From: Escherichia coli
Lineage (GTDB): Bacteria; Pseudomonadota; Gammaproteobacteria; Enterobacterales; Enterobacteriaceae
Assembly (NCBI RefSeq): GCF_003334405.1
Contig: NZ_QOWM01000004.1
Direction: 5' to 3' (one strand)
Length of the DNA: 64,000 bases
Both the position numbers and the translations under genes were made by a program. The notes beneath the pieces are model-generated. The model did not search any database. It saw only the letters and a list, made by a program, of their open reading frames with translations, and was not told the DNA's origin. Each line of letters begins with the position of its first letter. Within the stretch, counting starts at the first letter, position 1. Positions 17,855-23,997 of this stretch are shown here, in pieces.

Positions 17855-18808
17855 TTAACCTATCTCCTGTAACGCGTGTCTCTGGCGTTCGACGATATTG
17901 GTCCACAAATTGTCTTTATCGTCAGTCCATAAATTAATCAGCAAGGCAAAAAAGCGTTCTGCTGCTGGAGAAAGTACGGCATCTTTACGGCGAATTATTC
18001 CCAATGTTCGACGTATAACGGGTTCCACCAATGGGATACCAATAATCGAAGAATAGGGCGCATGAGGCATTGCCAGGCCAGGAAGCGCCGAAATCCCCAG
18101 TCCCGCCTCCACCAGTCCTAATGACGTCGAAAGATGACGCACTTCGTAAAACCAGTCCAGCTTCCAGGGCTTGTCGGCCAGCTGTTGTTCTATCAACAGT
18201 CGGTTGCCGCTGGAGGAGCGTACGCCAATCATTTTGTAACCCACTAACTCCTGCCATTCTACAAGCTGCTTTTTGGCCAATGGATGGTCACGCCGACAGG
18301 CCAGCACGAACGGCTCGTTGACCAGTGGGGTAAAATCAATGGATGAATTTGTGACGTTGTTCATGTTTATGCCAAAGTCTGATTCGTTACACAGCACCGA
18401 TTCCATGCAATTATTCGTGCCTTGTTCCAGAATCCGCACTTTAATATTGGGATACAGCTCATTAAATTTACCGATTGCCAGCGGTAAAAAATAAAATACT
18501 GCGGTCGGAATACACGCTAACGTCACCATACCACGATGATAAGCATTCATATCACGAATATTAAAAAGCGTTTCATCGAATTTCTTTATTAATTCCCGCG
18601 CCTCCGGGAGCAACCTTTTTCCTGCTTTTGTTAACGTAACCTTGCGAGTTGTACGCTCAAATAGTTGAATATGTAAATCTTCCTCCATCTTTTTTATTCT
18701 TCGCGTTAATGCAGGTTGCGTAATATTGAGTAATTTAGCGGCATTGTTAAACGAACTGGACTCTGCCAGTATGACAAATGCCTTCATACTTGATAATTCA
18801 TGCTTCAT
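17855..18808 (-). CDS. ybhD: LysR-family transcriptional regulator
   Basis: 317 aa from the internal ATG (MKHELSSMKAFVILAESSSFNNAAKLLNITQPALTRRIKKME, an HTH region); divergent from ybhHIJ. Confidence 0.85.
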   Translation of the reverse strand: MKHELSSMKAFVILAESSSFNNAAKLLNITQPALTRRIKKMEEDLHIQLFERTTRKVTLTKAGKRLLPEARELIKKFDETLFNIRDMNAYHRGMVTLACIPTAVFYFLPLAIGKFNELYPNIKVRILEQGTNNCMESVLCNESDFGINMNNVTNSSIDFTPLVNEPFVLACRRDHPLAKKQLVEWQELVGYKMIGVRSSSGNRLLIEQQLADKPWKLDWFYEVRHLSTSLGLVEAGLGISALPGLAMPHAPYSSIIGIPLVEPVIRRTLGIIRRKDAVLSPAAERFFALLINLWTDDKDNLWTNIVERQRHALQEIG

Positions 18809-18991
18809 TATTACTCCGGAAAATGGAAGCGACGATTTTGGGTGGCTGGCCGTTAAAAATTTTAACTGCATTTAGCCAACTTAAATTAATGAAAAAATGT
18901 TATTAATCGTTGAGCTAAAGTCATTAGAGATGCTTTGCCCTTAATGTAACCATATCGCAATAAGTTATGTTTTTAAATTGAGGGCATTATT

Positions 18992-20044
18992 ATGAAAAAA
19001 ATACCCTGCGTGATGATGCGAGGTGGAACCTCGAGGGGCGCGTTCCTGTTAGCGGAACATTTACCCGAAGATCAAACGCAGCGCGATAAAATATTGATGG
19101 CAATTATGGGTTCCGGTAACGATCTGGAAATTGACGGTATTGGCGGCGGTAATCCACTGACCAGTAAAGTCGCCATTATTAGCCGTTCCAGCGATCCGCG
19201 TGCTGATGTCGATTATCTGTTTGCGCAGGTAATCGTTCATGAGCAACGTGTCGATACCACGCCTAACTGCGGCAATATGCTGTCTGGTGTTGGGGCATTC
19301 GCCATTGAAAATGGTTTGATTGCAGCGACTTCGCCAGTTACTCGCGTACGTATCCGCAACGTCAATACGGGTACGTTCATCGAAGCTGATGTGCAAACGC
19401 CAAATGGTGTTGTCGAGTACGAGGGTAGCGCCAGAATTGACGGCGTACCGGGTACTGCCGCACCGGTTGCGCTCACTTTCCTGAATGCCGCTGGAACCAA
19501 AACCGGAAAAGTTTTCCCGACTGATAATCAGATTGATTATTTTGACGATGTCCCGGTGACCTGTATCGATATGGCGATGCCAGTCGTCATTATTCCGGCT
19601 GAATATCTGGGAAAAACAGGTTATGAATTACCGGCGGAACTGGATGCCGACAAAGCATTATTAGCCCGCATTGAATCTATCCGTCTACAAGCGGGTAAAG
19701 CAATGGGCTTAGGTGATGTCAGTAATATGGTTATCCCTAAACCTGTGCTTATTTCTCCAGCGCAGAAAGGCGGGGCAATTAATGTGCGTTATTTTATGCC
19801 GCATTCTTGCCATCGCGCGCTGGCGATAACCGGTGCTATTGCTATTTCCAGTAGTTGTGCATTGGAAGGCACCGTCACCCGACAAATCGTCCCTTCTGTA
19901 GGATACGGCAATATCAATATTGAACACCCCAGTGGTGCGCTCGACGTTCATTTAAGTAATGAAGGTCAGGATGCCACGACGTTACGCGCATCTGTTATTC
20001 GGACGACCAGAAAAATATTTTCCGGTGAAGTTTATCTTCCCTGA
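18992..20044 (+). CDS. ybhH: PrpF/AcnD-accessory family isomerase (putative)
   Basis: 350-aa ORF; sequence features of the PrpF / 3-methylitaconate isomerase / 4-oxalomesaconate tautomerase family. Confidence 0.88.
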   Translation: MKKIPCVMMRGGTSRGAFLLAEHLPEDQTQRDKILMAIMGSGNDLEIDGIGGGNPLTSKVAIISRSSDPRADVDYLFAQVIVHEQRVDTTPNCGNMLSGVGAFAIENGLIAATSPVTRVRIRNVNTGTFIEADVQTPNGVVEYEGSARIDGVPGTAAPVALTFLNAAGTKTGKVFPTDNQIDYFDDVPVTCIDMAMPVVIIPAEYLGKTGYELPAELDADKALLARIESIRLQAGKAMGLGDVSNMVIPKPVLISPAQKGGAINVRYFMPHSCHRALAITGAIAISSSCALEGTVTRQIVPSVGYGNINIEHPSGALDVHLSNEGQDATTLRASVIRTTRKIFSGEVYLP

Positions 20045-21553: not shown

Positions 21554-21735
21554 ATATTCTCGTCATACTTCAAGTTGCATGTGCTGCGTCTGCGTTCGCT
21601 CACCCCAGTCACTTACTTATGTAAGCTCCTGGGGATTCACTCGCTTGTCGCCTTCCTGCAACTCGAATTATTTAGAGTATATCCATTTATTATCTTTCTG
21701 CGCACTTCACGGTGCGCAGATATCTGGAGCATTTG

Positions 21736-23997
21736 ATGATCAAGTTATCTGAAAAAGGCGTGTTTCTCGCCAGTAATAACGAAATAATTGCCGAAGAACA
21801 TTTCACCGGCGAAATTAAAAAAGAAGAAGCCAAAAAAGGCACTATTGCCTGGTCTATTCTCTCTTCGCATAATACGTCCGGAAATATGGATAAACTTAAA
21901 ATTAAGTTTGATTCATTAGCCTCTCACGATATTACCTTTGTTGGTATTGTACAGACCGCTAAAGCGTCCGGTATGGAACGTTTCCCGCTGCCGTATGTGC
22001 TGACCAACTGCCATAACTCACTCTGCGCCGTCGGCGGCACTATTAACGGTGATGACCATGTTTTTGGTTTATCGGCGGCCCAGCGTTATGGCGGTATTTT
22101 TGTGCCTCCGCATATTGCGGTCATCCATCAATATATGCGTGAGATGATGGCAGGCGGCGGCAAAATGATCCTCGGGTCAGACAGCCACACCCGTTACGGT
22201 GCATTAGGGACAATGGCAGTCGGTGAGGGCGGCGGTGAGTTGGTAAAACAGCTGCTTAATGACACCTGGGATATCGACTATCCGGGCGTGGTTGCGGTGC
22301 ATCTGACCGGAAAACCTGCGCCGTATGTGGGGCCACAGGATGTGGCGCTGGCTATCATTGGCGCGGTGTTCAAAAACGGTTACGTCAAAAACAAAGTCAT
22401 GGAGTTCGTTGGACCGGGCGTTAGCGCGCTCTCTACCGATTTCCGTAACAGCGTTGACGTGATGACCACTGAAACGACCTGTTTAAGTTCTGTCTGGCAA
22501 ACCGATGAAGAAGTCCATAACTGGCTGGCGCTGCACGGTCGCGGCCAGGATTACTGCCAGCTTAACCCTCAACCGATGGCGTACTACGATGGCTGCATCA
22601 GCGTTGATTTAAGCGCCATCAAACCAATGATTGCGCTGCCGTTCCACCCGAGCAACGTGTATGAAATCGACACACTGAACCAGAACCTGACCGACATTCT
22701 GCGTGAGATTGAAATTGAGTCCGAACGCGTGGCGCACGGTAAAGCCAAACTCTCGCTGCTGGATAAAGTGGAAAATGGTCGCCTGAAAGTGCAGCAGGGG
22801 ATTATCGCGGGCTGTTCTGGCGGTAACTACGAAAACGTCATCGCGGCGGCGAATGCACTGCGCGGTCAATCCTGTGGCAATGACACCTTCTCGCTGGCAG
22901 TTTACCCGTCATCACAGCCGGTGTTTATGGATCTCGCCAAAAAAGGTGTGGTAGCAGATTTGATTGGCGCAGGCGCAATCATCAGAACCGCGTTCTGCGG
23001 CCCATGCTTTGGCGCGGGCGATACGCCAATCAACAACGGTTTGAGTATTCGCCACACCACGCGTAACTTCCCGAACCGCGAAGGCTCTAAGCCAGCTAAT
23101 GGGCAGATGTCAGCGGTGGCGTTGATGGACGCTCGTTCTATCGCTGCGACTGCGGCAAACGGTGGCTATTTAACCTCTGCCAGCGAACTTGATTGCTGGG
23201 ACAACGTGCCGGAGTACGCCTTCGATGTAACGCCGTATAAAAACCGTGTTTATCAGGGCTTTGTGAAAGGGGCAACTCAGCAACCGCTGATTTACGGGCC
23301 GAACATTAAAGACTGGCCGGAATTGGGTGCGCTGACTGACAATATCGTCCTGAAAGTGTGCTCGAAGATCCTCGACGAAGTGACCACCACCGACGAACTG
23401 ATTCCTTCCGGTGAAACCTCTTCTTATCGTTCAAATCCGATTGGTCTGGCGGAGTTTACCCTGTCTCGCCGCGATCCCGGTTATGTTAGCAGAAGTAAAG
23501 CGACTGCTGAGCTGGAAAATCAGCGTCTGGCGGGGAATGTCAGCGAGCTGACAGAGGTGTTTGCGCGCATTAAGCAGATTGCTGGTCAGGAGCATATTGA
23601 TCCGCTGCAAACTGAAATTGGCAGCATGGTCTATGCGGTGAAACCAGGCGATGGTTCTGCGCGTGAACAGGCGGCGAGCTGCCAGCGTGTGATTGGCGGT
23701 CTGGCGAATATTGCCGAGGAGTACGCGACTAAACGCTATCGTTCTAACGTCATCAACTGGGGGATGTTACCGCTGCAAATGGCGGAAGTACCAACCTTTG
23801 AAGTGGGGGATTACATTTACATCCCTGGCATTAAAGCGGCGCTGGATAATCCGGGTACGACGTTTAAAGGTTATGTGATCCATGAAGATGCGCCGGTAAC
23901 GGAAATTACGCTCTATATGGAAAGTCTGACTGCTGAAGAGCGCGAGATTATCAAGGCGGGTAGTTTGATTAACTTCAATAAAAACCGTCAGATGTAA
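21736..23997 (+). CDS. ybhJ: Aconitase-family hydratase (putative)
   Basis: 753 aa from the internal ATG ([10 protein letters not shown]) with a GGAG RBS; aconitase/IPM-isomerase family domains with Cys residues in GCSGG/CGPC contexts. Confidence 0.85.

Follow-up and report, generated by a model that had tools for sequence, protein, structure and literature searches.

The ybhD–ybhHIJ cluster of Escherichia coli as a candidate trans-aconitate utilization module joining a PrpF-family isomerase to an aconitase-family hydratase

Trans-aconitate is assimilated in Bacillus velezensis by the tarR/tarA-tarB system, in which a LysR-family regulator gene is divergent from an operon that opens with a PrpF-family isomerase gene and continues with the gene for an importer (PMC11495376). 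In the 2-methylcitrate cycle of Shewanella and Vibrio, a PrpF-family isomerase is instead paired with AcnD, an aconitase-family iron-sulfur (Fe-S) enzyme, and the two act on an unsaturated tricarboxylate (PMC5690661). The isomerases LigU and GalD, of the protocatechuate 4,5-cleavage and gallate pathways, use a catalytic lysine/cysteine pair to perform an allylic shift on a tricarboxylate. E. coli itself carries ttdR, divergent from genes for a Fe-S hydratase-type enzyme and a DASS-family carrier (ttdAB-ttdT), as well as a DASS carrier, CitT, that operates with citrate lyase. TtdAB is related to the class I fumarases. Here, we analyze ybhD, ybhH, ybhI and ybhJ, four genes of E. coli that share features with each of these systems and that occupy positions 17855–23997 of a 64-kb stretch of contig NZ_QOWM01000004.1 (hereafter, the window).

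Our comparisons lead us to favor, tentatively, a reading in which the ybhD/ybhHIJ cluster imports trans-aconitate, isomerizes it to cis-aconitate and hydrates the latter to citrate or isocitrate, under repression by YbhD. The carrier YbhI would take up an external unsaturated tricarboxylate, most likely trans-aconitate, and would probably act as an exchanger like CitT and TtdT. Judging from family chemistry, YbhH would then move the double bond by a 1,3-proton transfer catalyzed by a lysine and a cysteine, yielding cis-aconitate, which YbhJ, of an aconitase lineage that by gene context appears to supply the aconitase of the tricarboxylic acid (TCA) branch in gut anaerobes, would convert to citrate and/or isocitrate. 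These products could enter the TCA cycle or, anaerobically, be passed to citrate lyase. YbhD would bind the spacer between the divergent genes and hold ybhH off until an inducer is present. We infer the substrate, the direction of flux, the mode of transport, the inducer and the binding site in this scheme from the features listed here and from the comparisons that follow.

17855–18808, minus strand: ybhD, LysR-type regulator of 317 amino acids from the annotated start; represses ybhH
18809–18991, no strand: divergent AT-rich control spacer, 183 bp, 32.8% G+C
18885–18907, no strand: ATTAAT-N11-ATTAAT dyad, the best candidate for a YbhD recognition site
18923–18945, no strand: ATTA-N15-TAAT dyad of the preliminary description; pattern present
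18992–20044, plus strand: ybhH, cofactor-free PrpF-family isomerase of 350 amino acids; PDB 6OTV
20120–21553, plus strand: ybhI, DASS-family anion carrier of 477 amino acids; CitT/TtdT paralogue
21554–21680, no strand: enterobacterial repetitive intergenic consensus (ERIC, or IRU) repeat, inserted between ybhI and ybhJ
21700–21721, no strand: G+C-rich hairpin with a 10-bp stem, CTGCGCACTTCACGGTGCGCAG, just 5' of the ybhJ ribosome-binding site
21736–23997, plus strand: ybhJ, aconitase-family Fe-S hydratase of 753 amino acids

These are recognized but unassigned genes and not a new kind of system; what the comparison adds is a specific aconitate hypothesis. A preliminary description of the locus, drawn from the DNA letters and their reading frames, had held that its substrate was unassigned, and the searchable open-access literature indeed contains no biochemical assignment of ybhD, ybhH, ybhI or ybhJ. 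All four products are still "putative" in the RefSeq record of strain K-12 (isomerase, tricarboxylate transporter, hydratase), and the sole published proposal is "L-malate utilization related", from a growth difference of a ybhD mutant (PMC9068703). The same description had placed ybhD divergent from co-oriented ybhH, ybhI and ybhJ and had called the LysR, PrpF, DASS and aconitase families. The open reading frames (ORFs) sit at those places, the window is chromosomal E. coli DNA, megablast places the 6.1-kb stretch at 100% identity on E. coli chromosomes that carry the ybhD/ybhH/ybhI/ybhJ annotation, and all of the family calls hold in profile searches. The start it gave for ybhJ, 21712, is an in-frame GTG upstream of 21736. 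The layout is identical in the MG1655 K-12 RefSeq record, with pgl and ybhA at one end of ybhD–ybhJ and ybhC and ybhB at its other end, and at least 80% of the ybhDHIJ stretch is carried by 5316 of 5426 complete E. coli genomes (about 98%). Insertion sequence (IS) elements (ISVsa5, IS1A/B, IS5 and IS903B) break the cluster in several complete E. coli genomes, which suggests recurrent inactivation in some lineages.

The locus shares with tarRAB a LysR gene divergent from an operon in which a PrpF-family isomerase gene comes first and an importer gene follows. The two differ in their carriers, DASS (TIGR00785) for ybh and MFS for TarB, in the aconitase-lineage hydratase gene that is added in ybh, and in the sign of control, YbhD being a repressor (PMC9068703) and TarR an activator (PMC11495376); moreover, the role of the YbhH clade as an aconitate isomerase is putative. 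A TarA homologue of about 40% identity has been tabulated, by sequence alone and under a criterion of >30% identity to TarA, for Shigella, E. albertii and Edwardsiella, species that were classed as tarA-only, without tarB (PMC11495376). We take this homologue to be YbhH.

YbhH matches PF04303 (PrpF) over residues 1–350 with 560 bits, and its sequence is identical to that of PDB 6OTV, deposited as a "putative isomerase". Its closest solved relative after 6OTV is LigU (316 bits), followed by 3-methylitaconate isomerase (PDB 3G7K, 231 bits). Lys59 and Cys93 of YbhH align with Lys66 and Cys100 of LigU and are conserved in all 11 of the sequences compared. In an identity matrix, members of the YbhH clade (from E. 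coli, Klebsiella aerogenes, Edwardsiella, a Providencia plasmid and pRL12 of Rhizobium) are 58–84% identical to one another, versus 44–53% to the GalD/LigU clade. YbhH is also 40% identical to a PrpF-family protein of B. thuringiensis whose gene adjoins a DMT transporter gene; we take this pair to be tbrA/tbrB. Two loci of the YbhH clade are sparse: in Rhizobium only a LysR gene and an ABC transporter accompany the isomerase gene, and on the Providencia plasmid a LysR gene alone does so. Because the clade occurs without dedicated downstream enzymes, the product of YbhH would be a central metabolite, and cis-aconitate, which is already one, fits; the tarRAB system for trans-aconitate likewise consists of regulator, isomerase and importer (PMC11495376).

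YbhJ matches PF00330 over residues 49–478 (296 bits) and PF00694 (E = 6e-6) and scores 1541 bits on NF008503. On the nearest aconitase model, NF005558 (aconitate hydratase, ~650 residues), it reaches 343 bits against a cut-off of 612, and it is longer by about 100 residues than this next-best NCBIfam relative. We compared the active site of six members of the YbhJ clade, from four phyla, with that of pig mitochondrial aconitase. Cys360, Cys421 and Cys424, the ligands of the [4Fe-4S] cluster, are invariant in the six, as are Ser641, His93, Asp149-Ser150-His151 and Glu246, the counterparts of aconitase Ser642, His101, Asp165-Ser166-His167 and Glu262; aconitase His147 is likewise kept in YbhJ. 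Also invariant are the carboxylate-binding arginines Arg443, Arg448, Arg565 and Arg643 (aconitase Arg447, Arg452, Arg580 and Arg644), the equivalence with Arg580 having been read manually from a conserved TTDxxxxxG(x5)R motif in a stretch that HMMER left unaligned. YbhJ therefore resembles mitochondrial-type aconitase (PDB 7ACN) in domain order, cluster cysteines, catalytic serine and histidines and the four arginines. It differs in overall identity, which is roughly 27–30%, and at five positions of the full canonical active-site set (Gln72 to His, Asp100 to Cys, Asn258 to Val, Asn446 to Thr and Ser643 to Ala), each substitution being invariant across the four phyla. With the catalytic set kept and five clade-invariant substitutions, YbhJ appears to be a functional tricarboxylate (de)hydratase that bears a signature of its own.

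The company that YbhJ-type genes keep elsewhere bears on which tricarboxylate this might be. A tblastn search of plasmid/replicon records returned YbhJ identities of 52–60% in Cetobacterium, Acetoanaerobium, Pusillibacter and Ilyobacter, followed by ordinary aconitases at ~27%, and a protein search returned close enterobacterial relatives only (at least 74% identity). The clade proved compact in a representative search, with one main cluster at 50% identity and few members at 38–47%. A clade alignment run against a single genome of each species identified at least 599 stretches encoding relatives, of which we analyzed the best 80. These lie in distinct genomes, mostly of gut anaerobes; behind E. 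albertii and Citrobacter come gut anaerobes at 62–72% identity, among them Enterocloster, Hungatella, Lachnospiraceae, Blautia, Megasphaera, Synergistaceae and many Collinsella. We called ORFs at these loci and clustered the neighbors, and 47 of the loci fell outside Enterobacterales and a Collinsella-type context group. In 22 of the 47, a gene for citrate synthase and/or isocitrate dehydrogenase lies within 6 kb of the YbhJ-type gene. The neighboring citrate synthase scores 587 bits on NF010635 and the NADP-type isocitrate dehydrogenase 645 bits on NF006156, while the best matches of the NAD-type dehydrogenase are isocitrate dehydrogenase models. At YbhJ-type loci the genes are often found in the order hydratase, citrate synthase, isocitrate dehydrogenase. 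Because these make up the oxidative branch of the TCA cycle, the YbhJ-type enzyme would most simply be the aconitase of these anaerobes, and the frequent placement of the clade beside these two genes suggests that YbhJ itself is probably a true aconitase. The operon link to citrate synthase or isocitrate dehydrogenase is not seen in E. coli itself.

Other YbhJ contexts likewise indicate acids resembling citrate. In Cetobacterium the YbhJ-type gene is followed by TctCBA; Enterocloster has citDEF, two LysR genes, the YbhJ-type hydratase gene and that of a dehydrogenase; and in K. aerogenes the whole ybh-type cluster stands beside the citrate-fermentation locus citAB-oadGAB-citS-citC. The K. aerogenes cluster (positions 4865–12286 of locus L005) lies between rihC and that locus, a site other than that of E. 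coli, and has a second DASS carrier gene, of 420 amino acids, where E. coli has the ERIC element. The neighborhood comparison that the preliminary description had proposed also indicated that orthologues of YbhH, YbhI and YbhD join YbhJ in Enterobacterales only, among the loci examined. Two contexts were less telling. Throughout Collinsella (L038–L069 and others), the YbhJ-type gene stands amid heat-shock genes, with dnaK, dnaJ and an hspR-like gene upstream and clpB downstream; we saw no metabolic neighbors at these loci, and their context is uninformative. The Acetoanaerobium locus contains c-di-GMP enzymes and a NitT/TauT-type ABC transporter, with no clear functional hint. We considered whether this transporter is shared with the Rhizobium YbhH locus, but the binding proteins are only 21% identical, too little to support the idea.

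Pairing of a PrpF-family gene with a YbhJ-type gene extends beyond the enterobacteria. In Oribacterium, TctCBA and a response regulator are accompanied by a divergent LysR gene, a PrpF-family gene, a membrane protein gene, a YbhJ-type gene and citD-citE-citF. The gene order is that of E. coli, yet neither the isomerase nor the carrier is an orthologue of its E. coli counterpart; a crude hydropathy scan gives the 428-residue membrane protein seven or more hydrophobic segments. At the Ilyobacter locus the genes are PrpF, isocitrate dehydrogenase family, YbhJ type (frameshifted) and again isocitrate dehydrogenase family; on a metagenome contig they are LysR, Iso_dh, PrpF and YbhJ-like. From these loci it appears that PrpF–YbhJ pairs, joined by a LysR regulator and a tricarboxylate carrier, have arisen independently more than once. 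This recurrence argues that the pairing is functional and not accidental, and the neighboring genes suggest that what it produces is passed to isocitrate dehydrogenase or citrate lyase. A larger cluster occurs at three anaerobe loci (L007, L033 and L096), where a PrpF-family gene is found with one or two dehydrogenases of the isocitrate/isopropylmalate dehydrogenase family and two to three aconitase-family paralogues; L033 and L016 also carry an RraA-like gene resembling 4-carboxy-4-hydroxy-2-oxoadipate (CHA) aldolase. This larger cluster may represent a separate, uncharacterized tricarboxylate pathway.

YbhI belongs to the DASS family (TIGR00785, 554 bits) and is 34% identical to TtdT and 33% to CitT over its full length (~480 residues); it has also been noted to be 35.7% identical to a plastid 2-oxoglutarate/malate translocator (PMC9068703). 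Its paralogues CitT (citrate:succinate) and TtdT (tartrate:succinate) are antiporters, and by analogy YbhI may plausibly work by exchange and have a role in anaerobic growth conditions. The ybh locus thus resembles ttdR/ttdAB-ttdT in its divergent LysR gene, Fe-S hydratase-type enzyme and carrier of the same subfamily, and the citrate system in the likeness of YbhI to CitT. It differs from both in that the hydratase is of the aconitase family, an isomerase is added and antiport by YbhI is putative. The earlier suggestion that the cluster acts on an unsaturated tricarboxylate is strengthened by the four arginines retained in YbhJ, the citrate-like contexts of its clade and the paralogy of YbhI with CitT and TtdT.

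YbhD matches LysR-family models only, across residues 5–293, with PsrA as the best (257 bits, under the cut-off of 540), and its Edwardsiella orthologue carries PF00126 and PF03466. That a LysR-type protein controls ybhH, as the preliminary description had proposed, has been established experimentally, and the control is repression: RNA-seq shows ybhH strongly up when ybhD is deleted, and a single ChIP-exo site has been listed for YbhD (PMC9068703). The same study describes the ybhHIJ operon as Nac-regulated; we looked in its supplements for a YbhD motif and found none given. Similarity between YbhD and TtdR is confined to the helix-turn-helix region (26% identity) and therefore offers no clue to the effector of YbhD.

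The spacer between ybhD and ybhH is AT-rich, as had been remarked, its 32.8% G+C comparing with 52.1% for the window. It also contains the dyad, ATTA-N15-TAAT at 18923–18945, that had been proposed as the LysR site. This pattern occurs twice in the window, both times in the spacer (the second at 18885–18907), against a chance expectation of ~0.64 across the whole window. Short AT-rich dyads in the spacer are common by chance, with ~1.8 six-mer dyads expected in shuffles of its sequence. We aligned the spacers of E. coli, E. albertii, Citrobacter and Edwardsiella and found that approximately 18881–18952 is conserved (TAAATTAAT...AATCG...AAAGTCATTAG...ATGYAACCAT). The dyad at 18923–18945 survives this comparison in part: its left arm falls within the invariant AAAGTCATTAG block, whereas its right arm is lost in Citrobacter and Edwardsiella, and as a LysR site it is the weakest element of that earlier interpretation. 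ATTAAT-N11-ATTAAT, at 18885–18907, is a better candidate for the LysR box because its left arm is invariant across the alignment, most of its right arm is retained (ATTAAT in E. coli and E. albertii, ACTAAT in Citrobacter, ATCAAT in Edwardsiella) and it contains T-N11-A, the spacing typical of LysR boxes. A consensus promoter scan upstream of ybhH gave no sigma-70-like site. The ybhD frame is open for 21 codons beyond the annotated start (18809–18871), to an ATG at 18871; if this were the start of ybhD, the start codon would lie within the conserved part of the spacer.

Several observations weigh against the proposal that the cluster handles aconitate. YbhH is closer to 4-oxalomesaconate isomerases (LigU 46%, a Klebsiella GalD-like protein 49%) than to the tested aconitate isomerases (~40%), and the NCBI model for 4-oxalomesaconate tautomerases of the GalD/LigU type, NF033377, accepts it (515 bits, cut-off 440). 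YbhJ departs from aconitase at the five positions given above. E. coli already has AcnA and AcnB, so that a third aconitase appears redundant, a point the proposal leaves unexplained. Reportedly, deletion of ybhJ left the residual aconitase activity of an acnAB mutant unchanged in the hands of Blank et al. in 2002, although ybhJ may just have been repressed in that experiment. In the literature searched, nothing from enzyme assays or growth phenotypes connects the ybh genes with aconitate, and the published study pointed to malate (PMC9068703). Finally, a TarA homologue of Providencia rettgeri, AI-79, had less than 1% of the activity of TarA (PMC11495376). We considered AI-79 as a YbhH orthologue, but its primers mismatch the Providencia plasmid gene and the C-termini differ, so that its clade is uncertain and it cannot be used for or against the aconitate model; one primer further suggests an N-terminally truncated construct. 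An 18-fold rise of ybhJ in E. coli fed Chlamydomonas, a green alga, in a study that put the gene at the aconitase step following KEGG (PMC10972114), is compatible with that model.

Among the alternatives, one patterned on AcnD and PrpF would have YbhJ dehydrate an imported hydroxy-tricarboxylate (2-methylcitrate, homocitrate, hydroxycitrate or an isocitrate stereoisomer) to the "wrong" alkene, which YbhH would correct for rehydration by AcnB or YbhJ. AcnD with PrpF is an established pairing of the two families (PMC5690661), and PrpF–YbhJ pairs occur in several phyla together with isocitrate dehydrogenase-family dehydrogenases and extra aconitase paralogues. We nevertheless consider this unlikely. 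Both proteins fall far under the equivalog cut-offs, YbhJ scoring 63 bits on the AcnD model TIGR02333 (cut-off 1420) and YbhH 187 bits on TIGR02334 (PrpF proper, 2-methylaconitate isomerase; cut-off 440.55), and in place of prpBC neighbors the locus has a carrier and a LysR regulator. Furthermore, many YbhJ orthologues sit beside citrate synthase and isocitrate dehydrogenase without a PrpF gene, contexts in which the YbhJ-type enzyme seems to carry citrate to isocitrate alone, and the YbhH clade is in turn found without any hydratase.

It is improbable, too, that YbhH is a true 4-oxalomesaconate isomerase and that the module salvages ring-cleavage products of gallate or protocatechuate from gut microbes, with YbhJ replacing the hydratase LigJ or GalB. 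The NF033377 score of 515 bits against 440, the 46–49% identity to LigU/GalD-type proteins (the closest solved or characterized relatives), the common catalytic lysine/cysteine pair and a substrate that is also an unsaturated tricarboxylate all speak for it. Gene context speaks against the oxalomesaconate-tautomerase name: no dioxygenase, LigJ/GalB-type hydratase or CHA aldolase gene lies near any YbhH-clade locus examined, and no aromatic-cleavage genes lie near ybhH. In K. pneumoniae the GalD-like paralogue, 49% identical to YbhH, directly adjoins a CHA aldolase gene, whereas the K. aerogenes YbhH orthologue sits in the ybh cluster; because their loci are separate, we regard the two as different orthologous groups. 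The YbhJ clade, for its part, is linked to enzymes of citrate and isocitrate and not to aromatic catabolism.

A third alternative takes its pattern from Mii and DmdAB, with an alkylidene-succinate (itaconate or 3-methylitaconate) converted to an alkyl-maleate and then to an alkyl-malate. Eubacterium barkeri couples Mii with an aconitase-family dimethylmalate dehydratase, some databases name YbhJ orthologues "2,3-dimethylmalate dehydratase", and the 3-methylitaconate isomerase structure (231 bits) is the next-best solved relative of YbhH after LigU. YbhJ, however, keeps all four carboxylate-binding arginines, including the equivalent of Arg580, which fits a third carboxylate; its contexts are those of citrate/isocitrate chemistry and tricarboxylate transporters, and no alkyl-malate lyase is linked to the cluster. 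We judge a pathway of this kind to have little probability.

Two further explanations seem very improbable. The only published functional study would assign the cluster to the use of L-malate, a C4-dicarboxylate, given the growth difference of a ybhD deletion on glycerol and L-malate and the 35.7% identity of YbhI to the plastid translocator, but that phenotype comes from a regulator mutant with 238 differentially expressed genes (PMC9068703), an allylic isomerase and an aconitase-type hydratase have no obvious role in malate use, and the comparative context indicates C6 tricarboxylates.

The other would regard the E. coli cluster as a largely silent remnant of horizontal acquisition. Acquisition itself has some basis: the nearest non-enterobacterial relatives of YbhJ among the matches listed are Clostridia, at 72% identity, and the ybh cluster occupies differing chromosomal sites in Escherichia, Klebsiella and Edwardsiella. 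High YbhJ identity across phyla and these differing sites point to horizontal gain by enterobacteria. The Edwardsiella tarda cluster (positions 6237–12262 of locus L004) retains 84–88% protein identity to E. coli despite taxonomic distance and has a phage integrase nearby; its ybhI is split into two ORFs by an apparent frameshift, in this one Edwardsiella genome. That such a gain has left the E. coli cluster with no current physiological role is most doubtful, since set against the IS interruptions, the Edwardsiella frameshift and the ERIC element inside the operon are near-intactness in 5316 of 5426 complete E. coli genomes, the full complement of catalytic residues, specific regulation and the reported 18-fold induction.

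The ybhI–ybhJ gap contains elements that may affect how the operon is read. Both ERIC PCR primer sequences match the repeat exactly (21597–21640), and its transcript would form a long hairpin (fold z-score −6.0). The repeat is present in the E. coli and E. albertii loci only, being absent from those of Citrobacter, Klebsiella and Edwardsiella, and it could uncouple expression of ybhJ from that of ybhHI. The CTGCGCACTTCACGGTGCGCAG hairpin lacks a T-run and so is not a typical terminator. Downstream, between ybhJ and ybhC (24010–24215), lies an array of palindromic repeats of the repetitive extragenic palindromic/bacterial interspersed mosaic element (REP/BIME) type, which gives rise, on the minus strand, to a spurious ORF of 135 residues that is internally repetitive.

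Returning to the aconitate reading, its parts may be joined in a broader account, which we regard as possible yet rather doubtful. YbhJ-type proteins would constitute a third, hitherto unrecognized, major lineage of bacterial aconitases, with a housekeeping role in many gut Clostridia, Collinsella and Synergistetes. Having gained this enzyme by horizontal transfer, enterobacteria would have combined it with a new clade of aconitate isomerases, YbhH, and a CitT-like exchanger, permitting an anaerobic trans-aconitate:succinate fermentation that feeds citrate lyase. Within this account, the need for YbhJ might lie in the inhibition of AcnA and AcnB by trans-aconitate.

The ybh locus accounts for four of the y-genes left in E. 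coli K-12, and knowing its substrate would fill a gap in the metabolic network that has been studied best. Grasses, cereals and sugar cane are rich in trans-aconitate, which makes its presence in the gut of herbivores and humans plausible. If true, a dedicated route for trans-aconitate would add a dietary niche for enterobacteria. Beyond these organisms, a YbhJ family that serves as the working aconitase of many gut anaerobes would, if confirmed, correct the vague "hydratase" label carried by thousands of genomes.

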